A stretch of DNA of 64,000 bases from an uncultured Nitrospiraceae bacterium. Lineage in GTDB: Bacteria > Nitrospirota > Thermodesulfovibrionia > Thermodesulfovibrionales > Dissulfurispiraceae. Both the position numbers and the translations under genes were made by a program. Within the stretch, counting starts at the first letter, position 1; each line of letters starts with the position of its first letter. Below, one piece after another: positions 5,846-31,063 of the stretch. The DNA is taken from the NCBI GenBank assembly GCA_963727805.1, contig CAVSHF010000003.1:1632001-1696000 (forward strand). The letters are read 5' to 3'. Under the pieces are notes generated by a model. That model made no database searches. It saw only the letters and a list, made by a program, of their open reading frames with translations, and was not told the origin of the DNA.

Positions 5846-6596
5846 TCAGAAAATCCGTACTCTTCTCGAAGGCGATGCTTCATCGTTTTGATTCCTTCTC
5901 TGTGATAGGCTGTACCCTTTTGTCCTGATTCGCACAGCCATCATTATTTTTTCCGGAGACAACCCCATATGTGTAAGTCCTTGATGTCGCTGATGTCCAC
6001 GAAATTCATGTAGATAAATCTTCTGGCATCCTCCGGGTCTATTTTGGCAGGGTTGCTTGCCATTGGTATATGAAGGCTTTCTCTGATCAAAAAAGTACGT
6101 CGGATAAGCAACGAGCAACCCTATCAGTACACCGTTAAGAGGATCGACGAAATAAAGGCCGGTGAATTTTATGATAATAGCGGATATTATAACCCCAACG
6201 GAGTCTGGCAGATCATTCAATATTAGCATCGTTGCGCCCTTGAGGTTGATGTCCGCAGTATGCTTATAAAACATCAGTAATCCTTAAGCATTAACAGCCA
6301 GGCCGATTACGGCGATCAGGAGAATCTTATCTGCTTCTAAAGGCTCGGGATGAAGTATTTTGTCGTAGGCATCGAAAAAAATATGGAAGAGAAGAAAACC
6401 GGACAGTACCTTTGCCCTTTCGTATCCGGAGGTCTTGGTACTCGTCGGGGATTTTTCTGAGAGCCACGAGACATAGAAAGCCATGAATGAGGCATAGGTG
6501 ACAAGCGCGAGGCTGTGGTAATAAATACCACCCAATAACTCGACGAAGAAGTATGGTGTTTGCAATGAGAACCGATTCTTGAAATTATGTAGCCAT
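5846..6596 (-). pseudogene. Degraded CzcD/ZitB-like cation diffusion facilitator
   Basis: CDF motifs split over two ORFs: FFVELLGG...SLALV, GYERAKVLSGF, IAVIGLAVNA* and NLKGA...ND..DSVGVIISAII...VDPL; internal stop, frameshift near the 3' end, apparent deletions. Confidence 0.75.
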
Positions 6597-6808
6597 AATC
6601 TTTTCCGATCTTGATTAAAATGTGCTTTAAAAACGTTAATCGCGTTCCGTCCATTATTTCTCATTACTTGCCTAAGGACAGCGGTCACTTCGATTGCTGC
6701 GGATGTCAGGTAAGTAATGAAGGAAGTAATGGACAAGGGATAGAGGTACATACTATTTTTAGTTATAATACAATTAGAAAAAAGCACAGAATGCGCGGGA
6801 GGCATGTG

Positions 6809-7090
6809 ATGGGAATTCTTGACAATGGACTTAAAGGTAATATTTTCACAGGGCTTGCTATCGGGATTGGGGCAGCTGTGCTGGGGCCAGCCATCCTGCC
6901 TGTTATAGTTGGCGCCGCAAAACCCATAGTAAAAGCTGCAATAAAGGGTGGCATCCTCCTTTATGAAAAAGGAAAAGAAAACTTCGCAGAAGTCGGTGAG
7001 GTCCTGGAAGACATGGTTGCAGAAGTGAAGGCTGAGCTTGCAGAAACCGGTGAACAGGTCGCGACCCCTCCGCCCCCCCCAGAGGCATGA
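6809..7090 (+). CDS. DUF5132-type (FezA-like) small protein: GxxxG hydrophobic segment plus acidic helix
   Basis: GLAIGIGAAVLGPAILP...KPIVKAAIKGGILLYEKGKE...EDMVAEVKAE; GGGAGG SD before ATG 6809. Confidence 0.8.
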   Translation: MGILDNGLKGNIFTGLAIGIGAAVLGPAILPVIVGAAKPIVKAAIKGGILLYEKGKENFAEVGEVLEDMVAEVKAELAETGEQVATPPPPPEA

Positions 7091-7581
7091 TACCAGAAGC
7101 GCACATAGTTCATCGATCTTCCAGGCGGCTGCGACTCAAGATGCCGGTGAAAAAGTACCGCGAAGATTATCTAAAGGCACTGCCTGAAAAGCTGGCCGGC
7201 TGCCCCGGAATAAGCGAGATTGAAATCAACCCGGTTACCGGAAGCGTTCTTGTCAAACATGACGGTAATACGAAAGACATCATCGATTTCGTACGGTCCA
7301 AGGGCATATTTACAATAAAATTCAGCTCGGTGAGACCGCCGTCTGTTCATCAGAGCATAACGTCAGTCTATCGCAACCTTGACGGACTTGTGCAATCGTT
7401 TTCGAACGGCTCTACGAATGCAGGCGGCCTTGCTTTCCTGGGACTCATTGCATTCGGTGCCATCCAAATCGGAAAGGGAAACTTTGCAGCTCCTGCGTGG
7501 TACACAGTCTTCTGGTATGCGATGAATATTTTCCTAAAGTCGCAACCCGATGAAGCAGGCCCCGATATCGACGCAGAGTAA
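7087..7581 (+). CDS. HMA_2/CoBaHMA-domain membrane protein (FezC-like architecture)
   Basis: HIVHRSSRRLRLK...NPVTGSVLVKH HMA-like fold without CxxC; C-terminal hydrophobic GGLAFLGLIAFGAIQIGKG..APAWYTVFWYA; ATGA overlap with the upstream gene. Confidence 0.75.
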   Translation: MIPEAHIVHRSSRRLRLKMPVKKYREDYLKALPEKLAGCPGISEIEINPVTGSVLVKHDGNTKDIIDFVRSKGIFTIKFSSVRPPSVHQSITSVYRNLDGLVQSFSNGSTNAGGLAFLGLIAFGAIQIGKGNFAAPAWYTVFWYAMNIFLKSQPDEAGPDIDAE

Positions 7582-7691
7582 CATCACGATATTTAACATG
7601 GAGGTCACAGCAGTGATGGTAATCTTTTGTTGCTGTCCAGGATAAGGCGGAGCTAACAGTCAATAATTCATTGTTCCAAAGGAGGAATAAA

Positions 7692-8363
7692 ATGGCAACC
7701 AAAGCTGTAAAAAAAGAGAGCGTCAAAGAGGAAGTCGGCAAGGCGGGATCCAGCGTCAAGGCGGGCATTATCAGCAGTCTGAAGGGGATCAACGAGATTG
7801 AGGCTGAGATCGTCAGTCTCGTCCGTAACACCGTCTCCAACGCATTGCGGGCTACAGGGTCTGTTGCAGGTGAAGGCTTGGAGATTACCAAAGATGTCAT
7901 AAAGGGCGCGATTCAGGCGACAGAAGAAGTCGGCACTGGCCTCATCCTGAGCACCAAGAACGTGGCTAAGGGAGTGGTGATGGGCGTGAGCGATGTTGGC
8001 GGAGATGTAGTCCATGTTGCTTCGCAGACGGTTAAGGGCGCTGTCAAGGGCGCTGCCGAAATCGGAGCCGATGTTGGCCTTGTTGCTAGAAGGGCCGTCG
8101 ACGGGGTTATCGAAGCAGCCAAAGAGACGGGCGGAAACGTCGAAGAGGTTGCAAAAGTCGCCGTAGGCGGAGCAATCGAAGCTGCCGGCACGATCGGCAA
8201 TACGGCTGTGAAGGCAGTCAGGGAAATGCTCGTCGGTGTGGTGGAGGGAGTCAAAGACATCGCTTCAACTGCCTTACCCAAGAGCAGGGAAACTGCCTTA
8301 GCACCTAAAAAGACCCCATCGCCCGAGGTGACATCCAAAAGAAGTCGGCGTAAAGGAGCATAA
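7692..8363 (+). CDS. Gly/Ala/Val-rich protein of about 8 tandem 22-residue helical repeats (copy 1)
   Basis: Repeats such as KDVIKGAIQATEEVGTGLILST / KNVAKGVVMGVSDVGGDVVHVA / SQTVKGAVKGAAEIGADVGLVA; AGGAGG SD; paralog at 27011. Confidence 0.8.
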   Translation: MATKAVKKESVKEEVGKAGSSVKAGIISSLKGINEIEAEIVSLVRNTVSNALRATGSVAGEGLEITKDVIKGAIQATEEVGTGLILSTKNVAKGVVMGVSDVGGDVVHVASQTVKGAVKGAAEIGADVGLVARRAVDGVIEAAKETGGNVEEVAKVAVGGAIEAAGTIGNTAVKAVREMLVGVVEGVKDIASTALPKSRETALAPKKTPSPEVTSKRSRRKGA

Positions 8364-8369
8364 GAGTCA

Positions 8370-11300
8370 GTGGTCAGGGCCGTCCATTGGGCTGTAAAAG
8401 GCAGGGTTCGCTTTAAAGTGGACGGCCTCCGCCACTCCGAGGCGCTTAGGCGTCATATCGAGAGTGCTCTGTATGGCAAAGAAGAAATCACTATTCTTTC
8501 GATTAATACGGTGACCGGGAGTGTACTTGTTGCATACAACTCCGGCAATACATGGCAATCGGTAACGCCGGTTCTCGAAGGGATTGTGTCGGAATATGGA
8601 GCCGGCTCTGAGGCAGCAAAACATGTACAAAGCGGTAACGGAAAGAAAGAGGCTGATGCGCAAACAACGGGCAGACGTCTGTCTTCTTCCTCCGAAGCCC
8701 ACAATCTTCAGAGCAGGAGAAAACTCAGAAACCTCGTTGTCCATGCGGAAGATCAGCCGGAAGAGAAATGGCATAATCTCGAAGCGGATACCGTTCTTCG
8801 CCTCGTTTCTGCCGATGAAGACCTGGGCCTTTCCGATGAAGCAGCACAGCAGCGCCTAAAAAAATACGGCCCCAACATGCTTCCTGAGTCAGTGCCTCGA
8901 TCGGGGTTCAGCATCTTCATAGAGCAGTTCAAATCGTTGCCCGTAGCGCTCCTCGGAGTTGCGGCGGCAGTGTCGGTGGTTACAGGCGGTGTTGCCGATG
9001 CTATTGTCATTATGGCGGTAGTCGTAACGAATGCGGCAATAGGGTATGCAACCGAGAGCCAGTCTGAAAAGACAATCAATTCCCTGAAAAGCCTCGTAAG
9101 ACCGACCGCCTTTGTCATCAGGAACAGCAAGATACGCGAGATAGCAGCTGAAGGGGTCGTACCCGGCGATATCATCGCACTCAGGCCCGGGACATATGTG
9201 CCTGCCGACGCACGCCTCATCGATGCCAGCCGTCTCAGCATTGACGAATCGACCCTTACCGGAGAAAGTCTGCCAGTCGTGAAAAGTACTGCTGCCTTGA
9301 TCCAAGGCAATAAAGCTAACGGTAACAATGAGATCCCACTCGGCGACCGCACAAACATGGTCTATATGGGCACGATCGTCACAGGGGGTCAGGGTGCCGC
9401 TGTGGTAATCGCCACGGGGCGATATACTGAAATCGGACACATTCAGACCCTCGTCGGCTCTGCAAGGCCCCCTGAAACTCCGATGGAAAGACAGCTCGAC
9501 CGGATGGGTGGGCAACTCGTACTTATAAGCGGCGCCGTCTGCGGGATCGTTTTTCTGATCGGCCTTTTGAGGGGATACGGTTTTCTCCAGATGCTCAAGA
9601 TATCCATTTCCCTCGCTGTTGCAGCAGTTCCTGAGGGACTGCCCACAGTCGCAACGACTACGCTATCTCTCGGCATACGCAGGATGAGGAAACACAACGT
9701 ACTCATTCGCCATCTCGACGCAGTTGAGACGCTCGGTTCTGTCCAAACGATATGCATGGATAAGACAGGAACCATCACCTTGAATCGCATGTCTATTGTT
9801 GCGTTGCATACTGGGAAAAAACAGGTCCGGGTAGCCGACGGTAAGTTTTTCCATGGCTCCAAGATTCTGAATCCTTATGAATGCGACGAACTTCTGAGGC
9901 TTCTGCATATTGCCGTCCTTTGCAACGAAAGCGATGTAAGACGGTGCACCCCACAAGAACCTTGCGGGGGACCGGTTGTGGATGTGAAGGGAATGGGCCT
10001 TGCTGTTGGAATGATGCAACAGCACATGGTGAGCGGCTCGTCCACCGAAAACGCCCTTATTCATATGGCCCTCGCAGCTGGTATCGATGTCATTCAGCTC
10101 AGGAAAAAGTTTGTGATTGCTGATATCGGACACCGCGCGGAAATGCGTAATTTTATGACCACAACACATAGCGTACCCGATAACAGGAAACTTGTCGCCT
10201 TGAAGGGCAGTCCAGGCGAAGTGCTACAGATGTGCGATCGACATATCGTGGATGGCAAGATACTTCCTCTCACCGAGGACGACAGAATGAACATAGAGAT
10301 TGAAAACGAAAGAATGGCTGGAAATGCTTTGCGGGTCCTGGGCCTGGCTTATAAGCTGCTTGAAAATGAAGAGAATGATACCGATAGTCTTCAGGTGTTT
10401 ATCTGGCTCGGTCTTGTAGGAATGGCCGATCCGGTTAGAAACGGCGTCGGTGACGTCATTGAAGTTTTTCACAGGGCGGGGATCGATACCGTAATGATCA
10501 CCGGCGATCAGAGCTCTACAGCTTACGCCATCGGCAAGGAGCTGAACCTGAGCAAGGGTGAGCAGATTGAGATACTCGACTCGACCCATCTCACCGACAT
10601 AAGTCCTGAGGTACTCAAAGCCCTCTGCAAAAAAGTTCATGTATTTGCGAGAGTCAGCCCTGCTAACAAACTCCAGATCGTCCAGTCTCTGCAGTCCGCA
10701 GGTAGGGTTGTGGCAATGACAGGTGACGGCATCAATGACGGGCCAGCGCTAAAGGCTGCCGACATCGGAATAGCAATGGGGCACACTGGAACCGATGTAG
10801 CACGCGAAGTAGCAGATGTCGTTTTGGAAGACGACAATCTTGAAACGATGATCATCGCAATCAGCCAAGGCAGGACGATCTACAACAACATCAGAAAATC
10901 GGTCCATTTCCTGCTCTCAACTAATTTGAGCGAGATCATGGTCATGTTCACCTCCATTGCAGGCGGGTTGGGGCACCCGCTGAACGCTATGCAGCTCCTG
11001 TGGATCAACCTCCTTTCGGACATTGCCCCTGGCCTTGCACTGGCTCTTGAACAGCCTGAGCCCGATGTGTTGATGAGGCCACCGAGAGACCCAGGAGAAC
11101 CTATTATCAAGACATCTGATTTCAAGAGGATAGGCTTCGAGGCGGCGATGCTCTCTGTAGGCTCTATGTCAGCCTATCTTTACGGCATAACGCGTTATGG
11201 CATAGGTCCGAGGGCCAGCACAATGGCTTTTATGAGTCTCACCTTTGGCCAACTCTTTCATGCTTATAGCTGCAGATCCGAAACTCACAGCCTATTCGAC

Positions 11301-11564
11301 AAAGGGAAAATGCCGACCAATCCATATTTGAACGCAGCCATCGCCGGGTCCATGGGGCTTCAGGTACTCGCCATGGCTGTACCCGGCCTGAGGACGCTTC
11401 TTGGAATCACACCGATAGGCTTATTTGACAGCTTGGTCATCGGCGGCGGTGCAGTCTTGCCGCTCCTTGTCAATGAAGCTACCAAGTCAAAACCGAAAGA
11501 AGAGGATAAGAAGCATTCTTCTATCATCTTGCCGGACGGGCTCGTAATTGCCGACTCCGTTTAG
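8370..11564 (+). CDS. P2A-type (Ca2+-ATPase-like) P-type ATPase with an N-terminal HMA_2/CoBaHMA domain
   Basis: TGES, AVAAVPEGLP, DKTGT, KGSPGE, MITGD, TGDGINDGPAL, STNLSE, QLLWINLLSD; N-terminal VHWAVKGRVRFK...NTVTGSVLVAY. Confidence 0.92.
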   Translation: MVRAVHWAVKGRVRFKVDGLRHSEALRRHIESALYGKEEITILSINTVTGSVLVAYNSGNTWQSVTPVLEGIVSEYGAGSEAAKHVQSGNGKKEADAQTTGRRLSSSSEAHNLQSRRKLRNLVVHAEDQPEEKWHNLEADTVLRLVSADEDLGLSDEAAQQRLKKYGPNMLPESVPRSGFSIFIEQFKSLPVALLGVAAAVSVVTGGVADAIVIMAVVVTNAAIGYATESQSEKTINSLKSLVRPTAFVIRNSKIREIAAEGVVPGDIIALRPGTYVPADARLIDASRLSIDESTLTGESLPVVKSTAALIQGNKANGNNEIPLGDRTNMVYMGTIVTGGQGAAVVIATGRYTEIGHIQTLVGSARPPETPMERQLDRMGGQLVLISGAVCGIVFLIGLLRGYGFLQMLKISISLAVAAVPEGLPTVATTTLSLGIRRMRKHNVLIRHLDAVETLGSVQTICMDKTGTITLNRMSIVALHTGKKQVRVADGKFFHGSKILNPYECDELLRLLHIAVLCNESDVRRCTPQEPCGGPVVDVKGMGLAVGMMQQHMVSGSSTENALIHMALAAGIDVIQLRKKFVIADIGHRAEMRNFMTTTHSVPDNRKLVALKGSPGEVLQMCDRHIVDGKILPLTEDDRMNIEIENERMAGNALRVLGLAYKLLENEENDTDSLQVFIWLGLVGMADPVRNGVGDVIEVFHRAGIDTVMITGDQSSTAYAIGKELNLSKGEQIEILDSTHLTDISPEVLKALCKKVHVFARVSPANKLQIVQSLQSAGRVVAMTGDGINDGPALKAADIGIAMGHTGTDVAREVADVVLEDDNLETMIIAISQGRTIYNNIRKSVHFLLSTNLSEIMVMFTSIAGGLGHPLNAMQLLWINLLSDIAPGLALALEQPEPDVLMRPPRDPGEPIIKTSDFKRIGFEAAMLSVGSMSAYLYGITRYGIGPRASTMAFMSLTFGQLFHAYSCRSETHSLFDKGKMPTNPYLNAAIAGSMGLQVLAMAVPGLRTLLGITPIGLFDSLVIGGGAVLPLLVNEATKSKPKEEDKKHSSIILPDGLVIADSV

Positions 11565-11620
11565 CTTAAACTAGGGATTATGCATTAGCGATAACCGGCA
11601 CCATAAAGGAGGCGCCCCGC

Positions 11621-12805
11621 ATGAAGAAAGATTTCATGTTTACTTCTGAATCTGTGACAGAGGGACATCCCGACAAACTATGTGATCAGATTAGCGACGC
11701 CATCGTCGACCATTTTCTTCAGAAAGATCCGTTCTCAAGGGTCATTGCCGAATGCGCGGTATCGACGGCAATAGTATTCATTGCGGCCAGATTTAGTTCA
11801 GGTGATTCGGTGGACTTTCCAGGCATTGCACGTCAGGTCATCAGCCAGGTGGGATATGACCAAAATACATTCAATTCAAAGACCTGCAGCATCTTGACGA
11901 GCCTTAAAGAACTTCCTGAAGAAACAAATCGCTTCGACGAAAATGACCTAAGCGATGAAGAGATCGAGAAAATTACGGTAAAAAACCAGGTGACGGTCTT
12001 CGGTTTCGCCTGCAATCAGACGTCTGCGCTCATGCCCTTGCCGATATGGCTCGCACGGAAGCTCTCACGTAGACTTGCGTCGACACGGCTGCAGAGAATT
12101 CTCCCTTATCTTTCGCCTGACGGTAAGACACAGGTGGGGATCGAGTACCGTGACCGCAAGCCCAGGCGCATTCACAGCATTACGCTTATCGCAAGCCAGA
12201 ATATCGAAGGAACTCCCAATCTCAGGCGCCTTAGAGATGAAATGCGGGAAACCGTCATAGAACCGGCATTTCAGGATGAAGAAATAAAACCCGACAGCGC
12301 TACGAGGATATTCGTAAATCCCGACGGGCCGTTTATCATAGGCGGACCTTCAGTTCATTCGGGCCTTACCGGCAGAAAAAATGCAATCGACACCTACGGC
12401 GAATACTCCCGTCACAGCGGGGCTGCCCTGAGCGGCAAGGACCCTATGAGAATAGACAGGGTGGGAGCCTATATGGCTCGCTATGCGGCAAAGAACATCG
12501 TCGTGGCAGGCCTTGCAGACGAATGCGAGGTGCAGCTCAGCTATTCAATCGGCCTCTCCCGCCCGGTGAGCATTCAGATCGAGACTTTTGGTACCGGCCG
12601 GATTACAGATGACGAGATTGCGTCGCTCGTTGAAAGGCATTTTGACTTCCGGCTCGCCGCTATAGTGAAACAGTTCAGACTCAGGCTTCTTCCGTCAATC
12701 GTAAAGGGTGGTTTTTATCGGAAGCTCGCGGCTTACGGTCATGTTGGCCGTATGGATATTGGCTTACCCTGGGAACTGACAGATCGAGCGTCTCTCCTTA
12801 AATGA
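11621..12805 (+). CDS. metK: Methionine adenosyltransferase-family protein, divergent paralog
   Basis: FTSESVTEGHPDKLCDQISD, DGKTQV, GLTGRK, SGKD, AAYGHVGR; the GAGDQG signature is replaced by TVKNQV. Confidence 0.85.
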   Translation: MKKDFMFTSESVTEGHPDKLCDQISDAIVDHFLQKDPFSRVIAECAVSTAIVFIAARFSSGDSVDFPGIARQVISQVGYDQNTFNSKTCSILTSLKELPEETNRFDENDLSDEEIEKITVKNQVTVFGFACNQTSALMPLPIWLARKLSRRLASTRLQRILPYLSPDGKTQVGIEYRDRKPRRIHSITLIASQNIEGTPNLRRLRDEMRETVIEPAFQDEEIKPDSATRIFVNPDGPFIIGGPSVHSGLTGRKNAIDTYGEYSRHSGAALSGKDPMRIDRVGAYMARYAAKNIVVAGLADECEVQLSYSIGLSRPVSIQIETFGTGRITDDEIASLVERHFDFRLAAIVKQFRLRLLPSIVKGGFYRKLAAYGHVGRMDIGLPWELTDRASLLK

Positions 12806-13122
12806 ATTTTGGCAAGACAAAGATGTTAAAAAAAGCTTTATCCGAACGTATAGAACCGGTCGGTTGCGTCGAGAAGACCTCTGTTCCCAACAATGCCGCA
12901 CTTAATTCCGCGCATCGCAACGCAATCAAAGCACTCGCCGATCACTTAGGGATAGCGGTCGAAGATGTCTACAGACTGTATTGCATTGTTCTCAACAGAA
13001 TTGCGAAGGAAGCGAAAATTAAAGATTATCTCCCCATTCTTGTCAGCAGAAGAGTAAGTTACCTGATCCAGAAGAAAATAAAGATGAGCCTGCGAGCTGG
13101 CAGGATGATAAACCTGTCGTAG
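12802..13122 (+). CDS. DUF3562-like small three-helix protein
   Basis: AIKALADHLG...EAKIKDYLPILVSRRV pattern; overlaps the stop of the MetK paralog. Confidence 0.6.
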   Translation: MNFGKTKMLKKALSERIEPVGCVEKTSVPNNAALNSAHRNAIKALADHLGIAVEDVYRLYCIVLNRIAKEAKIKDYLPILVSRRVSYLIQKKIKMSLRAGRMINLS

Positions 13123-13140
13123 GACGAATGAGATTTGCTG

Positions 13141-13512
13141 CTAGATAAGCATTGCTAGCAATGCGAGGGGCGTCCCCTCAAGAACGGTACCGAGGACCGA
13201 ACCGAGGACTGACCTCCCGATAAAACTGCCCGCTTTGGAAGCCGCGCCATGAATGTATTCATCATGCGTTAATGCTTTGGACTTGTCGAAGTATCCCTTC
13301 CGGTCAAGCAGATTGACGATATCTTCATGTTTGATAACTTTATGATTGTAATTTATAAGTAGACTGCCGGTCGTCAGGTTGACGTCTACGGTAGCTATTC
13401 CGTTTATCGCACCGAGAGTCTTGCGCACCTCGTACAATGCATTTTCGTTTTTCTTTAAGATGGGGCTTTTGATCCTGAGCCGTCCTGGAACATTGTGGAT
13501 GTAATAGTTCAT
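13141..13512 (-). CDS. Stand-alone HMA_2/CoBaHMA protein with a Gly-rich hydrophobic C-terminal helix
   Basis: YYIHNVPGRLRIK...NLTTGSLLINY; tail GSFIGRSVLGSVLGTVLEG; ATG overlaps the stop of the 13512-13811 gene. Confidence 0.8.
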   Translation of the reverse strand: MNYYIHNVPGRLRIKSPILKKNENALYEVRKTLGAINGIATVDVNLTTGSLLINYNHKVIKHEDIVNLLDRKGYFDKSKALTHDEYIHGAASKAGSFIGRSVLGSVLGTVLEGTPLALLAMLI

Positions 13513-13811
13513 CAGTTTTCCACCTTCTGAGCAATTTTTATGTATGTTCGGCACTGAGGGTAATTCGCACACCTGAATGTCAGCATATTACCACCCCTCA
13601 CATTGAGGTGAGTGTGCCCACCACAGTTGGGACAGAGGGGTTTGTTTCTAACCTCCCTCCGGATTGCGTCGGGAGTGAACTGTCGTCCGCAGATGAGGCA
13701 AAGGAATCGCTGCTTACCATTCTTAATTCTGCCGTTCTTGTAGAGAGCGCCGGAATTACACACAGGGCAGTGTAGTTCAGTTTGAGCTCCCTGTTTGCAT
13801 ACGGCTTCCAT
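13512..13811 (-). CDS. Double zinc-ribbon protein (IS1 InsA-like ribbon plus topoisomerase-type C4 ribbon), copy 1
   Basis: CPVC..LYKNG..KNGKQRFLCLICGRQF; CPNCG...FRCANYPQCRTY; paralog at 31126. Confidence 0.75.
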   Translation of the reverse strand: MEAVCKQGAQTELHCPVCNSGALYKNGRIKNGKQRFLCLICGRQFTPDAIRREVRNKPLCPNCGGHTHLNVRGGNMLTFRCANYPQCRTYIKIAQKVEN

Positions 13812-13833
13812 ATGTTAATTAAACCAGATACTT

Positions 13834-13872
13834 GTTACATCAGCATGAAGGCAATGTTACAATTGTGTTACA
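13834..13872 (-). promoter_or_regulatory. Pho-box-like TGTAAC repeats upstream of zinc-ribbon copy 1
   Basis: GTTACA at 13834, 13856 and 13867 (22- and 11-bp phasing). Confidence 0.65.
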
Positions 13873-13945
13873 TAACTATTAAGAGGCTTAAAGACGAAGA
13901 TTAAATAGGGAGAAGAAAAGTGAGGGTGAATTATAAATAGCTATA

Positions 13946-14284
13946 TCAGGCCCCGATTCCGCCTTCAAGGGAATCTATTATGACCTGTTCAGCGGCTTCA
14001 ACAACTTTTTTTGTCGTATTTTCAATAACCTCATCAGATGTTTGTGCTTCGGCTAAACGGAAATAGTCATGCTTCTCAATAATTCCGATTATCTGCTCGC
14101 AATTTATTATTTTTTCATCAAAGTAGATGACAGCGCTGCCTGTAACGATGTGAATTTCAACCTCTAAAATGCCCTTGAATCCCTTTATAAATATTTTAAA
14201 TTCTTCCCCTTTTTGGGAGTTATCATGAATCAGAGGCGTTTGAATCCTTATTCTGCCCGGCACATAATGAATATAATATTTCAT
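13946..14284 (-). CDS. Stand-alone HMA_2/CoBaHMA protein
   Basis: YYIHYVPGRIRIQ...HIVTGSAVIYF; clear paralog of 13141-13512; AT-rich. Confidence 0.8.
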   Translation of the reverse strand: MKYYIHYVPGRIRIQTPLIHDNSQKGEEFKIFIKGFKGILEVEIHIVTGSAVIYFDEKIINCEQIIGIIEKHDYFRLAEAQTSDEVIENTTKKVVEAAEQVIIDSLEGGIGA

Positions 14285-14427
14285 ATTTTTATTTTATCAT
14301 AATTTACACTAGTCACCCCTTGGGGTATTTAATATAAAATTGTGACGCTGAAGACGTGCATCGTAATCCGGTGATTAAATAGGATATTCTATGATAAGAT
14401 TATATGAAAGCTGAGGAGGTGAAACTC

Positions 14428-14670
14428 ATGTTCGGGGGGCTCTTCGAGCCACTTCACCTGTTTATAATTCTTATCATTGCTCTCATAGTATTCGGTCCCG
14501 GCAAGCTCCCGCAGTTGGGAGCTGGTCTCGGCAAAGGGCTGAGGGAATTAAAAAGGGTCCTGTCTCAGGGAAAAAAGACTCAGATACCGCCAGTTGAGGC
14601 AGATCATGTAAGGAACATAGTTAAAATTATCGTAAAAAAAATATACTACGTATTCTTTTTTAAAAGGTAA
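14428..14670 (+). CDS. tatA: TatA/E-family twin-arginine translocase subunit (atypical C-terminus)
   Basis: HLFIILIIALIVFGPGKLPQLGAGLGKGLRELK; GAGGAGG SD. Confidence 0.75.
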   Translation: MFGGLFEPLHLFIILIIALIVFGPGKLPQLGAGLGKGLRELKRVLSQGKKTQIPPVEADHVRNIVKIIVKKIYYVFFFKR

Positions 14671-14716
14671 AGTATCATATCCGCTTGACGCGGAATATCA
14701 TAGCACGGAGGTTTGC

Positions 14717-15136
14717 ATGGACATATTAAGCGGACTCAAAAAGGACATCGAAGAAGGGATAAAGCAGGGTGTGGATGCTGTCAGGTCCACCGCAACTCTG
14801 GTCAAGGAAACAGCCGCAGAATTGACTGAGAAAGGCAAAACGCAGTATCACATTTACGAGCTGAAGAATAAACTACAGAAACAGTTAGCTGACCTCGGGG
14901 GAAAGCTTCACCAGCTGGCCAAGGCGAAAAAAGTGAAGGTCTCAAATCAGGACCTGACGAAGCTTCTTTCTGCAATCGACAAAACTCATGCCGCAATTAC
15001 CAAACTGGAAAGTAAGGAGCCTACCGCCGCTGCAACTTCGGAAAAGCCAGTCGCGAAAAAAGCCCTGATCAAAAAACAAAAAGCACCGGTGAAAAATAAA
15101 AGGCCGCAGAAAGAAAAAAGGGAGATGTCGAATTAA
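14717..15136 (+). CDS. Hypothetical helical/coiled-coil protein with a Lys/Ala-rich tail
   Basis: GGAGG SD; amphipathic N-terminal helix, heptad region ELKNKLQKQLADLGGKL, basic tail. Confidence 0.65.
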   Translation: MDILSGLKKDIEEGIKQGVDAVRSTATLVKETAAELTEKGKTQYHIYELKNKLQKQLADLGGKLHQLAKAKKVKVSNQDLTKLLSAIDKTHAAITKLESKEPTAAATSEKPVAKKALIKKQKAPVKNKRPQKEKREMSN

Positions 15137-15477: not shown

Positions 15478-17913
15478 ATGACACATCTTTATAAAGCAGA
15501 CCTTCATGTGCATTCAAGGTTTTCTAACAAGCCTTCTATTTGGGCACTCAGAAAATTGAACTGCCCCGAAAGTTATACCTTACCGGAAAGCATCTATAGA
15601 ATTGCCCTCAAAAAGGGGATGGATTATGTAACCATAACCGACCATAACACGATAAACGGTTCACTTGAGATTGCCCACCTGCCGGGTACTTTCATTAGCT
15701 CGGAGATAACTACCTACTTCCCTGAGGACGGCTGTAAGATGCATGTCGTTGCACTCAACATCACTGAGCGCAGTTTTGACGACATCATGCACTTGAGAAA
15801 AGACATCTATGAACTCGTGGCCTATCTTCAAGGAAATCGTATCGCCCACTACATCGCTCACCCGCTGTATGATATGAACGGGCGGATTTCGGCTGAAACA
15901 ATCGAGAAGTTGGTGCTTCTCTTCGATGTCTTCGAGACAAAGAACGGCTCACGTTCTCAGCGATACAACCAGATGGTATCCAGTATCCTCGATTCTCTTG
16001 ACGAAGACAGGTTGGCGAAACTGGCTGACCGGCACGGGATCTTACCATATGGACAATCACCGTGGATGAAGGGTTCCGTGGGAGGGTCAGACGACCATAG
16101 TGGCTTTTTTGTAGCGAGGGCATACACGGTATCCCCGGCAGGAAGGTCCATTGATGAGTTTGTTGGCTCAATATCGGACCGTAACAGTCTGCCCGCCGGT
16201 GACGATGGTGACGCTATGATGCTGGCACACAGCATCTACGGCATCGGTTACCGCTTCTTCAAGGAAAAGTTTGAGAAGAAAAAGATCAATTCCATGCCGT
16301 TTGTCAAAGCCCTGATGAAGCAGGTCATGAATACAGATCGCAGCGGAATGCTTCTAATCGAGAGGTTGCAGTTGTTTATCAGGAAGAACATACCGGAGAT
16401 GTATACCGGGCTTGAGGGTAGGACATTCGAGGAGATCATCGACCGGGAGGCGCGCATACTCCTGAACGACCCGAGCTTCCTATCGAGCATAAGCGTCGAG
16501 GATATTAACAGACGTGTTTTCACTGTGACGAGCTACCTCATCAACAGGCTCATATATATATATACAAATCAGATGATAAAGACATGTTTGTCGATGAGCA
16601 TAATGAATCTTGCCAATTCACTAAGCAGCATAGGGTTCATACATCTTCTTGCATCTCCTTATTACCTCGCGTTTCACCATCAGCACCGAAGCAAGGCTCT
16701 GCTGGCGGAATTAGAGACTCGTTTCCTTGCGGAGATCAAATCACCTTTACCTCAGAAGATCGCGCTTTTTACCGATACGCTCCATGAGATAAACGGGGTG
16801 GCGATAACCATAAAGCGTCTTATGGAAAAGGCCAGGAGAGAAGGTGTCGAACTTGTGGTCATTACCTCGAGCCCGGACGAAACATCCTTCAATAACGGCA
16901 TTATGAATTTCAAATCCTTCGGCATGTTCGCACTACCTGAATATCCGGACCTTAAGCTCCATTTCCCGCCCATCCTCGATATTATCGATTATGTGGAAAA
17001 GGAAGGCTTTACGCGGTTTCATGTCAGCACGCCCGGAACTGTAGGTCTTATTTCCCTTCTTATTGCGAAATTGATGGATATCCCCATATCGGGCACTTAC
17101 CACACCGACATCCCGCAATATGTAAAAAGCCTCACTAACGATGCATTCCTAGAGGATGTCGCCTGGAGTTATATGATCTGGTTCTACAATCTCATGGAAG
17201 AGGTGATGGTACCATCTGCAAGCACACGTAAGCAGCTCATCGAAAAAGGTCTTGTTGCGGACAAGGTGCGTCCCCTTCCCAGATGGGTCGATACCGAATT
17301 TTTTACACCCATAAAAAGAGACCCCTATCTATGGACACGGCAGGGGCTTTTCGGCAGGGTGAAGTTCCTTTACACCGGCAGGGTTTCGCGGGAAAAGAAC
17401 CTTGAGCTCCTCTCACAGGCATTCAGGGCGATGATAGACGCCGGCCTAGATGGTGACCTGATTATCGTGGGAGATGGACCGTATCGGCAAGAGATGCAAG
17501 AGCAGATGAAAGGCTATCCGGCAATCTTCACAGGCTTTCTTACGGGAGAGGATCTCTGTATTGCATATGCTTCTTCCGATGTCTTCGTCTTTCCGAGCAC
17601 TACTGACACCTTCGGCAATGTGGTGCTGGAGGCCCAAGCATCCGGCCTCCCTGTCATCGTATCCGACGAAGGTGGACCAAAGGAACTGATGAAAGACGGC
17701 GTAACCGGCCTTTCGATATCTTCCAATAATCTCGATGCCCTGATCAATGCCATGAGCTTCTTCGTGAGCGAGCGCAGCCTTATTAATACTATGGGGGCTA
17801 ACGCCCGGCATTTTACCGAAAATCATTCAATTGATGTGAGCAATGCATACAGCACCATACTCAGGAGCAAGCCTTGCCGAACGCCGCTCGAAGACGCCAC
17901 CATGACCGCATGA
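15478..17913 (+). CDS. PHP-domain / GT4 glycosyltransferase fusion protein
   Basis: ADLHVHS, TITDHN, AHP, GGSDDH (PHP); FTDT...NGVA, YHTDIP, GRVSREKN, FPSTTDTFGNVVLEAQASGLPV (GT4). Confidence 0.9.
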   Translation: MTHLYKADLHVHSRFSNKPSIWALRKLNCPESYTLPESIYRIALKKGMDYVTITDHNTINGSLEIAHLPGTFISSEITTYFPEDGCKMHVVALNITERSFDDIMHLRKDIYELVAYLQGNRIAHYIAHPLYDMNGRISAETIEKLVLLFDVFETKNGSRSQRYNQMVSSILDSLDEDRLAKLADRHGILPYGQSPWMKGSVGGSDDHSGFFVARAYTVSPAGRSIDEFVGSISDRNSLPAGDDGDAMMLAHSIYGIGYRFFKEKFEKKKINSMPFVKALMKQVMNTDRSGMLLIERLQLFIRKNIPEMYTGLEGRTFEEIIDREARILLNDPSFLSSISVEDINRRVFTVTSYLINRLIYIYTNQMIKTCLSMSIMNLANSLSSIGFIHLLASPYYLAFHHQHRSKALLAELETRFLAEIKSPLPQKIALFTDTLHEINGVAITIKRLMEKARREGVELVVITSSPDETSFNNGIMNFKSFGMFALPEYPDLKLHFPPILDIIDYVEKEGFTRFHVSTPGTVGLISLLIAKLMDIPISGTYHTDIPQYVKSLTNDAFLEDVAWSYMIWFYNLMEEVMVPSASTRKQLIEKGLVADKVRPLPRWVDTEFFTPIKRDPYLWTRQGLFGRVKFLYTGRVSREKNLELLSQAFRAMIDAGLDGDLIIVGDGPYRQEMQEQMKGYPAIFTGFLTGEDLCIAYASSDVFVFPSTTDTFGNVVLEAQASGLPVIVSDEGGPKELMKDGVTGLSISSNNLDALINAMSFFVSERSLINTMGANARHFTENHSIDVSNAYSTILRSKPCRTPLEDATMTA

Positions 17914-19199
17914 CGTCAGGCCATGCCTTAATAAAGGGACTTCAACTCCTTACCCCTTTTTTCAGTAACCACCTCCCAGGTCAGGTCGTCATGCAATACA
18001 CCGACATGTGCAATGCTCAGTGTCCCCAGTGCGGAATGAGGAGCACCGAGTCCTTCAAAAGATCGACGCTCGGCATCGATACTGCCAAAAGGATCATAGA
18101 CCATGCCGCCGCAAGCGGTATTTCCGCTCTCTCAATCACCGGAGGAGAGCCCCTGCTATTTCTCGATGATGTTGTGGAACTTATCAGATACGCTCATGAC
18201 GCGGGCATTAAATATACGCGGACCGGTACAAACGGCTTCCTCTTCATGCATTCAGAAAAACCGGATTTTGAGAAGCGCGTCTCAAAGATCGCTGAGACCC
18301 TCGCCGTAAGTGGCATCTACACCTTCTGGATCAGCATTGACTCTGCAATTCCGGACGTCCATGAGCAGATGCGCGGACTACCGGGCGTCATTCCCGGCAT
18401 AGAAAAAGCCTTGCCCATTTTGCACGAACACGGCATCTATCCCGCAGCCAATCTCGGTATTAACCGAAACATTCTGAGTAATATCGAAGGCAATAATTTG
18501 TCGGTCACACACCCAGTCGAATTCTACGAAGCATTCAGGGAAGCCTTCGGCCGGTTCTATTCATTTGTGATTGATCTTGGCTTTACGATGGCAAACGCCT
18601 GCTATCCGATGAGTATCGACTCCAACAAAATTGCGAGACTCAGCGCCGCTTATGCCGCAACCTCGGAAGCACAACTGGTAGAGTTCGCCGATGATGAGAG
18701 ACCTCTTCTATTCAAGGCGCTTTTCGATACCATTCCACTATTCAGGTCAAAAATTAGAATATTTTCTCCGAGGAGCTCCCTGTACTCTCTCATTAGGCAA
18801 TACACTGTCGGTGAAGAGTACTGCTATCCCTGCAGGGGCGGAACGGACTTTTTCTTCGTCGATGCTAAGGAGGGTGCTGCCTACCCCTGCGGGTACAGAG
18901 GAGATGAACGGCTCGGACGTTTTTGGGAGATCAACATAAAAAACCGGGATAGCGCCTCCTCGTGCAGGAGATGCGACTGGGAATGTTTCAGAGACCCATC
19001 GGAACTGATGGGCCCTCTGCCATCGCTTTTTTCGCAGCCTGTGACTACTCTTTCGAGGCTTATTACAGATAAGACCTATTCAAAACTGTGGCTTGGGGAC
19101 ATCTCTTATTTCCGGGCTTGCAACTACTTCGATGGCCGGAGACCTCCAGATTTCAGAAAGATGTCGACATTCTTACCGAAAGAGGAGAGACGTTCATAA
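17910..19199 (+). CDS. Radical SAM protein with C-terminal auxiliary-cluster cysteines
   Basis: CNAQCPQC, ITGGEPLL, C-terminal CRGG...YPCGYR...CRRCDWEC; ATGA overlap with the GT4 gene. Confidence 0.88.
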   Translation: MTSGHALIKGLQLLTPFFSNHLPGQVVMQYTDMCNAQCPQCGMRSTESFKRSTLGIDTAKRIIDHAAASGISALSITGGEPLLFLDDVVELIRYAHDAGIKYTRTGTNGFLFMHSEKPDFEKRVSKIAETLAVSGIYTFWISIDSAIPDVHEQMRGLPGVIPGIEKALPILHEHGIYPAANLGINRNILSNIEGNNLSVTHPVEFYEAFREAFGRFYSFVIDLGFTMANACYPMSIDSNKIARLSAAYAATSEAQLVEFADDERPLLFKALFDTIPLFRSKIRIFSPRSSLYSLIRQYTVGEEYCYPCRGGTDFFFVDAKEGAAYPCGYRGDERLGRFWEINIKNRDSASSCRRCDWECFRDPSELMGPLPSLFSQPVTTLSRLITDKTYSKLWLGDISYFRACNYFDGRRPPDFRKMSTFLPKEERRS

Positions 19200-19213
19200 T
19201 AGGCTTGTTGGGC

Positions 19214-21481
19214 ATGTCCAACAAGCCTCATCTCCCGGCATATTTTCGCTCGGGCAGATTGTGCATATTTCTCTTGTTTTCACTTTTCGCCCTCCTCTGC
19301 GCATCGACTGAAAATGGCTCTGCGGCATCACTTTCGCCGGTCAAATCGATTACCATCGAAGCGCCCTCTGAACTCCTAGAAAATAGCATCACAATATTGG
19401 CAATAGATGATGCGATTAATCTTTTGAAAAAAAGTTTCACAGGAGCTGCCATCTCTCTCAATGGCGATAACGCACAAGTACGGATCATCCTGCCGAAGAT
19501 CATTAAGCATGAACGCCTGATGACTTCGAGCTTTTCCAAGGGAAGGACTTATGACTATCTGAATTATCCTGAGCACAATTACAGATGGCGCTCATCTCGG
19601 AAGAAAGACATCATCACTCTGGAGCTCCGCAGTTCTTCTTATGAAGGGACGGCCTTCGGCATTTATGGTCTACTTCAGGAGAAGCTCGGGTTCAAGTTCT
19701 ATCACCCACGGAGATCCATAATCCCATCCCACAAAGCTTGGCCCCTGCCTCCCAATTTTGATTGGCAGGCAACGCCGCGCTTTGATAAAAAAGGCTTCCA
19801 TATCCACACTCAGCACCCTGTCGAACTTGCCGAGCAACTTCATAACCCCGGCATGGTCAATGCACTTGCTGATGTGAAGGAATACATCGACTGGCTTGCT
19901 CGAAACCAGCAAAACGTCTTCCAGTTTTATCTGCTTCGCGATATTCAACGAGACCAGTGGATGAGGCATGCCAAAGAAATAGTATCATACGCTCACAAAA
20001 GGGGAATCCTTATAGGGGTAGAATTCTCCCTCGCCTGCATACAGCAAAAAGCCTTTCAGGCGCTCAAGCTCCTCAACCCTTTGCAGGGCAGCTATCGTAC
20101 TCAGGTTGATGACACCCTTGCATGGTTGTTGCAGGCAGACTGGGATTTTGTGACCGTTGATTTCTCCATGGGCGAATATATGCTGGATCTTGGTGTGACA
20201 ATGCCGGAATTGCGCGACTATGTAATCACTCAAATCACCACGAAGTACAAAACTAAGGTACTATATGCAACTCACATAATTCAGCAAAAGGATTGCGTCA
20301 AACTGCCAAAGGCATTGCAGAGCATGTTCAGTCCCGCATGCGACGGTACTATACATATCCCTCAGCAAGCAGGGGTTCTGATTCACACCGTGATGTGCTA
20401 CTCCATCGATGCGATGAAAGCTCCGGTATACGGCAATGCAAACCAGCGCTATATGCTTCGGCGAGCTGCTGAGGAAAGCAGAATCCGTGAAACCTGGTAC
20501 TGGCCCGAATCGTCTTACTGGGTCTCGTTTGACAACTCCGTGCCTTTGCTTTTGCTTACGTATCTCGACGCGCGGTGGCGTGATATGAATACCATGAAAA
20601 GGATCGGGGTCGATAACCACATTACCTTCAGTTCGGGATGGGAATGGGGTTATTGGCTGATTGACTGGAGCATCGCTCGATGGTCGTGGGTGCATAAGGG
20701 AAAAGGCAGTGGAAAAACATCCCATCCGCTAAACATATTGTTCGACCTATTCACAGATGAGCGCATTGAAAACATCTGGGAAGAAGCACTTGCTCTCCAG
20801 GACTACTTTTTTAATGAACGCGAATTAATGCCATTGATGTCGGCCCTTGACCCATCAGCGGAACTTCCATCACCTTTCAATCATCCTTTCCAGCCCCGGC
20901 CGAGCTTCACATTCGAATGGCTTCTCAGAAAATCTTCAGATGATTATGTAAACAAGGTCCTGCAGGGCCCTGTCGCTTCACTGATTGATTATGACCAAAA
21001 GATGAGTCATTTGACAAAAATGCTCAAGGTCGAATCGGCACGTTTCTTTTCAAAAAGAAAGCATAGCAATCCTCAACTCAAGGGGCTCATGGATGAGTTG
21101 ACCAGAAGCTTACAGATTACCGCCCTACGGGCCAGGCACCGTTCATTGACCATAAAGGCACTGATTGCAAAACGCGAGCAAGTTCTAAAGGGCCGACTGA
21201 CGAATGAAGCGGAGGCCTTGCTGCAACGTGCCATGGAAGTGCGCAGCGAGGCCCAGACAATAGTGCATGTTCAGGAAGGTGCATACCGTTATCCTGTGGA
21301 ATTGCTTGCACGTAAGCGACAGAGCTTTACTGCTTATGAGTTCGGGTATCTTTATCCTGCAAGCAATCTTTACTTCTGGTGGCGGGAAGAAGAGCAGGTC
21401 CGAAACACTAGATTCGATGCCTTTTATCTGAACATATGGGACTTCAGACGCATCATAGGTCTCGAGAGCCTGCTGTATTAA
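19214..21481 (+). CDS. Large exported protein of unknown function (possible glycoside-hydrolase-like TIM barrel)
   Basis: N-terminal hydrophobic signal; GTAFGIYGLLQEKLGFKFYHP followed by FDKKGFHIHTQHP resembles the GH20/GH67 domain-2-to-barrel junction. Confidence 0.6.
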   Translation: MSNKPHLPAYFRSGRLCIFLLFSLFALLCASTENGSAASLSPVKSITIEAPSELLENSITILAIDDAINLLKKSFTGAAISLNGDNAQVRIILPKIIKHERLMTSSFSKGRTYDYLNYPEHNYRWRSSRKKDIITLELRSSSYEGTAFGIYGLLQEKLGFKFYHPRRSIIPSHKAWPLPPNFDWQATPRFDKKGFHIHTQHPVELAEQLHNPGMVNALADVKEYIDWLARNQQNVFQFYLLRDIQRDQWMRHAKEIVSYAHKRGILIGVEFSLACIQQKAFQALKLLNPLQGSYRTQVDDTLAWLLQADWDFVTVDFSMGEYMLDLGVTMPELRDYVITQITTKYKTKVLYATHIIQQKDCVKLPKALQSMFSPACDGTIHIPQQAGVLIHTVMCYSIDAMKAPVYGNANQRYMLRRAAEESRIRETWYWPESSYWVSFDNSVPLLLLTYLDARWRDMNTMKRIGVDNHITFSSGWEWGYWLIDWSIARWSWVHKGKGSGKTSHPLNILFDLFTDERIENIWEEALALQDYFFNERELMPLMSALDPSAELPSPFNHPFQPRPSFTFEWLLRKSSDDYVNKVLQGPVASLIDYDQKMSHLTKMLKVESARFFSKRKHSNPQLKGLMDELTRSLQITALRARHRSLTIKALIAKREQVLKGRLTNEAEALLQRAMEVRSEAQTIVHVQEGAYRYPVELLARKRQSFTAYEFGYLYPASNLYFWWREEEQVRNTRFDAFYLNIWDFRRIIGLESLLY

Positions 21482-30764: not shown

Positions 30765-30820
30765 TGTAATGATATTGTAACATTCCTGTAACATTGCCGT
30801 AACTTGCGATGTGGTGTAAT
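30765..30820 (+). promoter_or_regulatory. Pho-box-like promoter
   Basis: TGTAAT 30765, TGTAAC 30776, TGTAAC 30787, CGTAAC 30798, then TGgTGTAAT as a possible -10. Confidence 0.7.
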
Positions 30821-30847
30821 TCATTATTAAGTTTATGGAGGCAAGTT

Positions 30848-31063
30848 ATGTATTTTGACATGAAACTCACCAAAACGGTCATGTGCCCTTATTTAAAGGG
30901 AAGCGATCATGGGGCCGAATGCGCTGTTGCCATGGACCTCGTACGTAATATCGAAAATGCTGATATAAAGTTCTGCATGAGCAGGCACTATGAGATATGT
31001 CACGTCTACTTTACATCATTAAGACGTGAAAATAGTCTTCGGTCACAGCTGCAAGCGTATTGA
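30848..31063 (+). CDS. Small Cys/His-motif protein (copy 2)
   Basis: MCPYLKGS..GAEC.V...VRNIEN..IKFCMS...EICHVY; GGAGG SD. Confidence 0.72.
   Translation: MYFDMKLTKTVMCPYLKGSDHGAECAVAMDLVRNIENADIKFCMSRHYEICHVYFTSLRRENSLRSQLQAY

Follow-up and report, generated by a model that had tools for sequence, protein, structure and literature searches.

A conserved ferrosome-like gene cluster that pairs a P2A-type pump with a MetK-fold protein: candidate genes for a calcium-(poly)phosphate compartment

We analysed a 64,000-nt stretch of contig CAVSHF010000003.1 (assembly GCA_963727805.1) from an uncultured Nitrospiraceae bacterium, here called the window, to which all coordinates refer unless another locus is named. 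It carries a cluster of six plus-strand genes, A to F, and three minus-strand genes, G to I, in which small membrane proteins like those of ferrosome (fez) clusters accompany a P2A-type ATPase, D, and a MetK-fold protein, E. The operon is real and widely conserved. The cluster is apparently undescribed; it is of the fez/PacL kind, but another pump has taken the usual place and an enzyme-like partner is new to it. We give a probability of roughly 0.4 to the reading that it builds a calcium-(poly)phosphate compartment under phosphate starvation by means of the fez kit.

Results

The operon and its conservation

Gene A (6809-7090) encodes a DUF5132 protein of the FezA/PacL superfamily (Pfam E 1.7e-16), with a GxxxG membrane segment and an acidic cytoplasmic helix, and B (7087-7581) a FezC-like protein that joins a CoBaHMA (HMA_2) domain to a Gly-rich membrane hairpin (HMA_2 E 2e-12, profile 10-153/154). 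C (7692-8363) is a 22-residue helical-repeat protein without known family, predicted to form an alpha-solenoid. It is followed by D (8370-11564), whose P2A-type ATPase has an N-terminal CoBaHMA domain (E1-E2 ATPase, plus HMA_2 at 33.9 bits against a cut-off of 30), by E (11621-12805), with three S-AdoMet_synt domains in Pfam, and by F (12802-13122), a small helical DUF3562 protein (Pfam E 1.4e-8). The intergenic gaps are -4 bp (A-B), 110 bp (B-C), 6 bp (C-D), 56 bp (D-E) and -4 bp (E-F). A first-pass annotation, made from the letters of the window, had proposed these open reading frames (ORFs), their order and their domains, together with two HMA proteins on the opposite strand (G and I), and the ORF list and Pfam bore all of this out.

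The pump-anchored scan took the best 80 of 361 matching stretches, which make up 76 loci; the co-occurrence counts omit loci with short flanks, count by count, and draw on 52 distinct loci overall. Since related genomes are not independent, the conservation figures are to be read as counts and not as tests. The scan reached Nitrospirota, cyanobacteria, anammox planctomycetes, Desulfobacterota-type lineages and Binatia, and the 120 best D homologs (61-100% identity) carry HMA_2 in 110 cases, the query included. Upstream of D in the pump-anchored non-cyanobacterial loci, A and B were each found in 36 of 38, C in 33 of 38 and all three in 32 of 38. E lay downstream of D in 46 of 47 such loci, the sole miss (L030) having E behind a split pump; taken overall, E follows D in 90/91 non-cyanobacterial and 17/26 cyanobacterial loci and is the most constant partner of the pump. 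F was found in 24 of 51 well-flanked non-cyanobacterial loci, a small G-like HMA_2 protein in 47/51 and the zinc-ribbon gene H in 31/51. Co-occurrence in other genomes, which the first-pass annotation had named beforehand as one test of its proposal, extends to at least five phyla.

Sampling by DUF5132 gave a consistent picture. This family is present in 46 of 301 Nitrospirota genomes, and all 53 places other than the query's own were examined. It lies within the present operon in 42 of 45 genomes (in one it is cut off by the end of the contig, in another the pump is split) and beside a P1B-6-like pump in the remaining three, so that the operon occurs in about one in seven sampled Nitrospirota genomes (42/300, source genome aside).

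Cyanobacteria were also sampled from the side of E, which was present in 13 of 201 genomes. D precedes E in all 12 loci fetched, and A or B precedes D in seven of these; the cyanobacterial A is fused to the membrane part of B and stands directly upstream of D. Nine cyanobacterial copies of D lacked an adjacent E, and the E query found no E in two of five such genomes. In two Calothrix genomes E precedes a different pump, 40% identical. Among plasmids, no E match was found at 1e-120, and three records matched D at 35-41%, the best of them unannotated. Chlorogloeopsis fritschii PCC 6912 has two D-E copies (L019:9959-13154 and L160:9828-14845); one of its pumps is split near the C-terminus in the assembly, and the other is intact behind an A-B fusion.

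Pump D has a P2-type membrane core and a probably altered nucleotide pocket

Models, structures and a tree agreed with the earlier proposal that D is not a P1B pump. The best models for D were PMR1- and SERCA-type, both below cut-off, as D is for the curated cut-offs of all P2 models; the nearest solved structures were SPCA1, LMCA1 and SERCA, and D has PEGL in M4 and the P2 helices M5-M10. The D family formed one clade apart from the FezB-motif P1B pumps (SH-aLRT 100) in a quick tree with long branches and without a SERCA/LMCA1 reference, which was used only for the distinction of D from P1B.

In 200 distinct D homologs the key residues of DKTGT, TGES, TGD and GDGxND are present without exception. 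When aligned to SPCA1, the site-II ligands M4 Glu, M6 Asn and M6 Asp were each found in 200/200, as were M5 Asn and Glu and the Ser/Thr ligand position. The M8 site-I position, Asp in SPCA1, is Gln in 192 homologs, Gly in six and Glu in two. With the SERCA numbering that we take to apply to these positions, five of the six SERCA-type side-chain ligands are intact. The first-pass annotation was therefore right that its three quoted SERCA-type motifs are present, but the M8 ligand is Gln and not Glu in those 192 of 200. Gln at this position points to a probable single strong site for Ca2+ or Mn2+, and from the ligands D most likely transports one Ca2+ (or Mn2+) per cycle. Ten positions in D that differ with and without an adjacent E were considered and set aside as probable clade signal.

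The adenine site of a P-type pump is described as holding a phenylalanine, Phe487 (PMC5259720). We placed the corresponding residue by a gap-free count from the conserved G-x-x-T-E motif of the N-domain, leaving out 16 sequences without the anchor pattern and three classed as others. By hand count, LMCA1 and Na,K-ATPase have the adenine-pocket Phe at +30, whereas the D family has Arg there in 239/239 anchored sequences, with the following Lys changed to Asn in 211 of the 239. Position +29 is His or Tyr in 211/239 and Pro, as in the canonical motif, in three. The HMMER alignment shifts by one and pairs the +29 His with the Phe through two compensating gaps; because of this pairing and the His or Tyr at +29, the Arg-for-Phe register is likely but not certain. 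Stacking on adenine is also open to arginine, and the adjacent Lys and Arg that contact ATP are intact in D, so D may still use ATP.

E has a rebuilt methionine pocket

All 30 aligned members of the E family match TIGR01034, and the window copy passes the cut-off. Residues were numbered with the host genome's own MetK as ruler and compared over 109 distinct operon-linked copies. His14, Asp16, Lys17, Glu42, Asp163, Lys245, Lys265 and Asp271 are kept in 109/109, Arg244 in 108, Lys165 in 106 and Phe230 in 85. Beyond His14 and Asp163, the conserved MetK residues presumably serve the triphosphate, Mg and K.

In E. coli MetK, His14 is reported as the acid, Asp163 and Asp238 as holding the ribose, Asp238 and Glu55 as binding the amino group of methionine, and Gln98 and Lys269 as binding its carboxyl (PMC3853416; PMC1282579). 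These methionine-binding positions are replaced in E: Glu55 by Arg (104/109), Asp238 by His (109/109) and Lys269 by Arg (109/109), while the Gln98 position is mostly hydrophobic and is not Gln in any of its six commonest states. The gating loop is acidic, with a median net charge of -5.

E was carried by 44 of 45 genomes checked, and 43 of these 44 also have a second MetK (44-53% identity, one partial), which is called canonical here by identity only; in the host genome the separate MetK is 45% identical to E. As judged from its residues, E is not an ordinary S-adenosylmethionine (SAM) synthetase. The simplest reading is that E would be an anion-binding hydrolase or sensor built on the triphosphate-cleaving step of MetK, acting on a putative substrate that we consider below. 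The earlier description of E as a MetK paralog held as far as it went; it under-read the gene, whose active site is rebuilt and whose pairing with the pump is the most constant in the operon.

A and B are related to small proteins of ferrosome and PacL systems

In A, G15-x3-G19 lies inside the hydrophobic segment (residues 11-38), and the helix carries invariant Glu/Asp. The membrane part of B is moderately hydrophobic (maximum 1.51 in a 19-residue Kyte-Doolittle window). The CoBaHMA signature is described as a His before strand beta1, basic residues in beta1/beta2 and no CxxC (PMC8890360), and PF19991 is equated with CoBaHMA (bioRxiv 10.1101/2024.07.07.602159). B, G and I show this pattern, with the His before beta1, basic beta1/beta2 and CxxC missing; the first-pass annotation called these proteins Cys-less, which is correct for CxxC but not for cysteine as such, since B and I have one Cys each. 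The head of D also has the signature (His 193/200, Arg 195/200, Arg 196/200, Lys 175/200), and R-x-R occurs there in 195-196 of 200.

Because DUF5132-anchored sampling (in the phylum of genome G307) gave mostly the present operon and not FezB clusters, FezB loci were collected with a P1B query. The comparison set comprised 19 P1B-pump loci of 48 listed places, eight of them with FezB-type M4/M6 motifs or one-letter variants, as defined in the ferrosome preprint (bioRxiv 10.1101/2020.01.10.902569). The A profile matched a small gene beside seven of the eight FezB-motif pumps, with E from 2e-6 to 1e-2 in a set of 1124 ORFs, and it matched nothing next to the CPC-type pumps of the same 19 loci; the match was thus judged against genes beside FezB-motif pumps and not against D. 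magneticus FezA itself. Four of the FezB-adjacent A-like proteins were scanned, and two matched DUF6110 and two matched DUF5132 weakly. A profile-profile comparison of A with the FezB-adjacent proteins gave a probability of 95.3 (E 2.2e-8), with six sequences that had been picked by A-profile matches, so that it is not independent of the profile search. In locus L176, where an HMA_2 gene adjoins a FezB-motif pump, B aligned with the HMA_2 product at 28% over 152 aa (E 1e-12). These sequence comparisons uphold the earlier claim of similarity to Fez/CoBaHMA families and indicate that A and B are homologous to small proteins beside true FezB pumps.

A is equally a relative of PacL. It gave no direct DUF1490 or DUF6110 match in Pfam at E 0.1, its kinship running through proteins that match DUF6110, a family termed PacL-like (PMC13043812; bioRxiv 10.1101/2021.10.01.462712). 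ESM neighbours of A include DUF6110 and DUF1490 clusters (0.88-0.89), which we treat as a lead only. PacL is reported to bind the N-terminal domain of its pump through Glu/Ala repeats and to form plasma-membrane platforms (PMC13460109).

The host genome has one DUF5132 gene and five HMA_2 matches, four of the latter within the cluster, and none of its P1B pumps has the FezB motif. The sole HMA_2 gene beyond the cluster encodes a protein of 339 aa whose CoBaHMA domain is C-terminal, behind an unrecognised N-terminal one (near 1702 kb of the contig; L126:6046-7065, minus strand). Elsewhere in Nitrospirota and in cyanobacteria we noted candidate variant fez clusters, in which the P1B-6-like pump has variant M4/M6 motifs and is flanked by DUF5132 and HMA_2 genes (L105, L106, L107, L128-L130, L132, L158, L169).

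Repeat protein C

The 22-residue period of C, reported in the first-pass annotation, is real (z 10.3 versus shuffles). The predicted structure has eight helices (pLDDT 81, pTM 0.71), and its fold matches, designed helical repeats with Z up to 18.9 and W2/HEAT domains with Z 10.4, reflect a common helical arrangement only. No Pfam family scored above cut-off for C and no named family was found. We dropped C as a candidate calcyanin GlyZip on finding it not hydrophobic (maximum 1.09). A second copy of C, 82% identical, lies at 27011-27613 (plus strand), and in several genomes C is fused to a ROS/MucR regulator domain (P0121-P0124, P0127, P0130) or, once, to CsbD.

The minus-strand genes, regulation and the phosphate neighbourhood

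G (13141-13512, minus strand; HMA_2 E 9.5e-15) and I (13946-14284, minus strand; HMA_2 E 1.6e-14) are stand-alone CoBaHMA proteins. Between them lies a gene that the first-pass annotation overlooked, H (13512-13811, minus strand), a double zinc-ribbon protein with an InsA-like N-terminal ribbon and a candidate regulator; G is downstream of H, with a 1-bp overlap, and is predicted to be co-transcribed with it. Upstream of H-G, tandem Pho-box-like repeats with an 11-bp period occupy 13855-13883 (minus strand). They were scored with a matrix of 11-bp-period repeats learned from pstS upstream regions, and we assume the name Pho box from that place before pstS. The two repeats before H scored 16.6 and 21.3 bits, and repeats of this kind occur upstream of H homologs in 35 of 54 regions (0.55 expected) and of A homologs in 18 of 87 (1.35 expected), many of the latter sharing a divergent region with pst genes. 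Nine of 31 cyanobacterial upstream regions (0.87 expected) fit an assumed Pho consensus, eight of them from one clade.

Upstream of A, a scan with a matrix that had been trained on other genomes found two divergent copies of a 17-bp operator-like motif (6706-6722, plus strand; 6659-6675, minus strand), at 16.7 and 21.5 bits; a -35/-10-like site at 6730-6759 lies directly downstream of the plus copy. The motif is present before A homologs in 54 of 87 regions, a circular figure in that these are the training set, and had 0 occurrences in shuffles and 0 upstream of pstS, the zinc-ribbon gene or B. Further copies in the host genome stand before the alkaline-phosphatase operon, before a DUF2341/ExbB-like operon and before an MgtC-like gene, the last two labelled from sequence reading. 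A scan for sigma-70 promoters and terminators was not above chance. The Pho-like boxes suggest regulation by PhoB, and a cascade from PhoB through H to A-F would be our guess.

Further along the window come an alkaline phosphatase gene (22.3-23.9 kb) and pstSCAB-phoU (31.8-36.2 kb). Within the fetched flank of about 10 kb, pstS/phoU were found in 19 of 51 loci outside the cyanobacteria and in none of 20 cyanobacterial ones. Ornithine-lipid genes, PhoH/PsiE, CorA, CDF, MntP/YtaF and MgtE recur as neighbours. Iron-homeostasis genes (Feo, Fur/DtxR) were missing among the annotated recurrent neighbours, where a hemerythrin family in seven loci is the sole link to iron; nor was there a calcyanin-like, carbonic anhydrase or bicarbonate-transport gene among them, calcyanin not having been searched by profile. 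Conserved neighbours and Pho-like boxes alike uphold the phosphate link proposed earlier. Of the "phosphate-starvation island" in which the cluster was said to lie, the alkaline phosphatase and pst genes are indeed close by and make the neighbourhood regulon-like; a GC anomaly did not accompany them.

Several other genes in and around the cluster are recorded here. A CDF gene in two or more frames (5846-6805, minus strand), whose Cation_efflux matches come in two pieces, is divergent from A behind the stronger operator copy, and intact CDF genes lie near the operon in nine loci. Downstream of the cluster, a tatA-like gene and a gene for a 139-aa coiled protein (14404-15136, plus strand) are arranged as in L024/L025, the 139-aa family occurring in nine loci. 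They are followed at 15478-21481 (plus strand) by a PHP-plus-GT4 glycosyltransferase of glycolipid-synthase-like type, a radical SAM protein and a 797-aa protein without Pfam match; in relatives, OlsB/OlsA-like ornithine-lipid genes adjoin the operon. A second H copy, 60% identical (31126-31437, plus strand), stands behind Pho-like boxes just before pstS. Four Cys-rich families of 60-80 residues without Pfam match accompany the cluster in 31, 21, 20 and 9 loci (members at window 30809-31063, L085:5923-6117, L092:7128-7337 and L036:18859-19032), and two of them lie behind Pho-like boxes (14/26 and 18/22).

Discussion

A candidate calcium-(poly)phosphate compartment

The reading that we favour, a calcium-(poly)phosphate compartment made under phosphate starvation, starts from the correspondence of A, B and the CoBaHMA-headed pump to the three parts that suffice for ferrosomes, as a minimal three-gene fez operon is reported to do (bioRxiv 10.1101/2020.01.10.902569). 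Ferrosomes are described as built under iron limitation and filled on re-supply (bioRxiv 10.1101/2020.01.10.902569; PMC13463818), and their filling as a metal-phosphate mineral (10.64898/2026.06.16.732667). The Microcystis calcyanin/Ca-H exchanger locus, linked to intracellular CaCO3, is likewise reported to have DUF5132 and CoBaHMA-membrane genes (bioRxiv 10.1101/2024.07.07.602159). Two carriers of D-E have Ca-rich inclusions, an anecdotal link: C. fritschii PCC 6912 with Ca and P, and F. muscicola PCC 7414 with carbonate (inclusions from PMC8890360).

In such a compartment A, a membrane anchor with an acidic helix, would bind the basic CoBaHMA domains of D, B, G and I and so cluster the pump, and the Gly-rich hairpins of A and B would organise a membrane patch that buds inward, with C as a putative soluble scaffold. 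Each cycle of D would bring a divalent cation into the lumen, most likely a single Ca2+ (or Mn2+), to be deposited with phosphate or polyphosphate once phosphate returns, as ferrosomes fill on re-supply. E would be a dedicated partner of the pump that binds Mg/K-triphosphate and not methionine; most likely it would hydrolyse or sense short polyphosphate or nucleotide, either supplying phosphate or setting the activity of the pump.

Several observations weigh against this reading. C is best modelled as a soluble solenoid, which would not be an obvious membrane coat, and no phosphate transporter was found in the core operon, nor a Pho box above threshold before it (upstream of A) in the window. 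In the pump-anchored cyanobacterial loci A was near D in 2 of 22, and B and C in 0 of 22; since cyanobacterial D is so rarely near these genes, D-E can operate without the kit. The Ca+P inclusions of cyanobacteria can be ordinary polyphosphate bodies, according to PMC8890360. A starving cell might gain more obviously by exporting the Ca2+ that precipitates phosphate (PMC10654040). Lastly, A shares a superfamily with the PacL scaffolds of plasma-membrane efflux platforms, and because it is equally PacL-like it does not separate storage from efflux; the kit is at work in storage (fez), in efflux (PacL) and probably in carbonate loci, and its presence alone leaves the outcome undecided.

The main rival reading, somewhat less likely in our view, is that the same parts form an effluxosome-like membrane platform for efflux or metallation that makes no mineral body. 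It accords with the A-like neighbours of FezB, which are either DUF6110 proteins, PacL-like by the papers cited, or weak DUF5132 matches, with the invariant Glu/Asp in the A helix and, as a lead, with the DUF6110/DUF1490 ESM neighbours. P2A pumps are thought to prevent Ca2+ from precipitating phosphate (PMC10654040), the transporters CorA, CDF, MntP/YtaF and MgtE recur nearby, and the host's alkaline-phosphatase operon has the same operator in front of it as A. The PacL operons described, however, have two genes, whereas the present locus resembles fez and calcyanin loci in having a FezC-like membrane protein, a scaffold and several soluble CoBaHMA proteins, and four further P2/P3-type pumps in the host genome could do plain efflux.

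It is unlikely that D-E is the true unit, a phosphate-economy device in which E would convert a polyphosphate or nucleotide and D would use or sense it, with accessory genes secondary and an ion that is perhaps not Ca2+. The near-constant order of D and E, extending to all 12 E-anchored cyanobacterial genomes, argues for it, as do the arginines gained in the ligand pockets of both proteins, the M8 Gln and the scores of D below every curated P2 cut-off. Yet 36 of 38 pump-anchored non-cyanobacterial loci keep A and B, E does not adjoin D in nine cyanobacterial cases and was not found by its query in two of five such genomes, and five of six SERCA-type side-chain ligands are intact. A bolder form of the compartment reading seems to us still less likely: the MetK-fold partner would make or deliver tripolyphosphate or short polyphosphate, and the Arg-pocket pump would be phosphorylated by a non-ATP donor while a calcium-phosphate organelle is assembled with the ferrosome kit. 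If true, it would lay out the genes for an acidocalcisome-like body in bacteria, and its P-type pump would draw on an energy input of a new kind.

We consider it very unlikely that the cluster builds calcium-carbonate inclusions, as is thought for the calcyanin locus. DUF5132 and CoBaHMA genes are reported to flank ccyA in Microcystis (bioRxiv 10.1101/2024.07.07.602159), intracellular carbonates are reported from Thermodesulfovibrionales magnetotactic bacteria (PMC12710302), and F. muscicola PCC 7414 has D-E and forms carbonates; against this, the annotated recurrent neighbours include none of the calcyanin-like, carbonic anhydrase or bicarbonate-transport genes, regulation and context point to phosphate, and D-E is found in only 13 of 201 sampled cyanobacterial genomes. 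Most improbable of all is that E, though divergent, still works as a SAM synthetase, serves the synthesis of phosphorus-free lipids and is merely under common control with a Ca pump to which it has no relation: the TIGR01034 matches (30/30, the window copy above cut-off), the lipid-remodelling genes that adjoin and the report that archaeal MATs bind the methionine carboxyl by other residues (PMC3853416) speak for it, but Glu55, Asp238, Lys269 and Gln98 are replaced in E at the frequencies given above and 43 of 44 E genomes keep a second, canonical-like MetK.

Comparison with known systems

Like fez clusters, the present cluster combines a pump whose N-terminal domain is R-rich with a small GxxxG membrane protein, an R-rich/CoBaHMA membrane protein and soluble R-rich proteins (bioRxiv 10.1101/2020.01.10.902569), and its control is apparently starvation-linked as well. 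It is not a member of the fez family: FezB is a P1B-6 pump marked by D[Y/F]SCA (M4) and HNxxT (M6), whereas D is P2A-type with Ca ligands, the context is phosphate and not iron, and a MetK-fold partner, a 22-mer solenoid, a DUF3562 protein and a zinc-ribbon gene are added.

The PacL/Ctp effluxosomes of mycobacteria likewise have a small membrane anchor with a glycine groove and a Glu/Ala-rich helix, whose gene precedes that of a P-type pump headed by a ferredoxin-fold domain (bioRxiv 10.1101/2021.10.01.462712; PMC13043812; PMC13460109), but the present pump is P2A and not P1B, A is without a His-rich metal motif, and there are many more conserved partners. The ccyA neighbourhood of Microcystis PCC 7806 also has DUF5132 and CoBaHMA proteins beside a calcium transporter (bioRxiv 10.1101/2024.07.07.602159; PMC8890360); there the transporter is a Ca/H exchanger accompanied by calcyanin, whereas here it is an ATP-type pump with a MetK-fold protein, and the recurrent neighbours inspected include no GlyZip gene. 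D shares catalytic motifs and site-II ligands with LMCA1 and SPCA1/SERCA and differs from them in its CoBaHMA head, its M8 Gln, the Arg at the adenine-pocket Phe position and the Asn at the following Lys. E resembles MetK (TIGR01034; EC 2.5.1.6) in a fold-level sequence match, the catalytic His and the triphosphate/Mg/K residues, but its methionine residues are replaced by cationic ones and it is always an extra copy beside a pump.

In the literature searched, which lay outside the fez supplementary tables and most subscription papers, we found no description of the operon or of a MetK-like pump partner. Gaschignard et al. 2024 is reported to catalogue transporters that are fused to CoBaHMA, and this may already include the CoBaHMA-P2A fusion.

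Significance

Whether ferrosome-like structures exist for metals other than iron is posed as an open question in a 2026 review (PMC13463818). The cluster is a clonable 6.3-kb candidate for such a non-iron structure, with cultured hosts in Chlorogloeopsis and Fischerella. Either outcome would be informative, a Ca/phosphate organelle or the finding that FezA/PacL/CoBaHMA parts are a general pump-scaffolding kit for both storage and efflux. The work also exposes a multi-phylum MetK-like family that databases label SAM synthetase despite its rebuilt methionine pocket, paired with a pump whose nucleotide pocket is altered. Since about one in seven sampled Nitrospirota genomes has the operon, it bears on how phosphorus and calcium are handled in sediments and in treatment plants.

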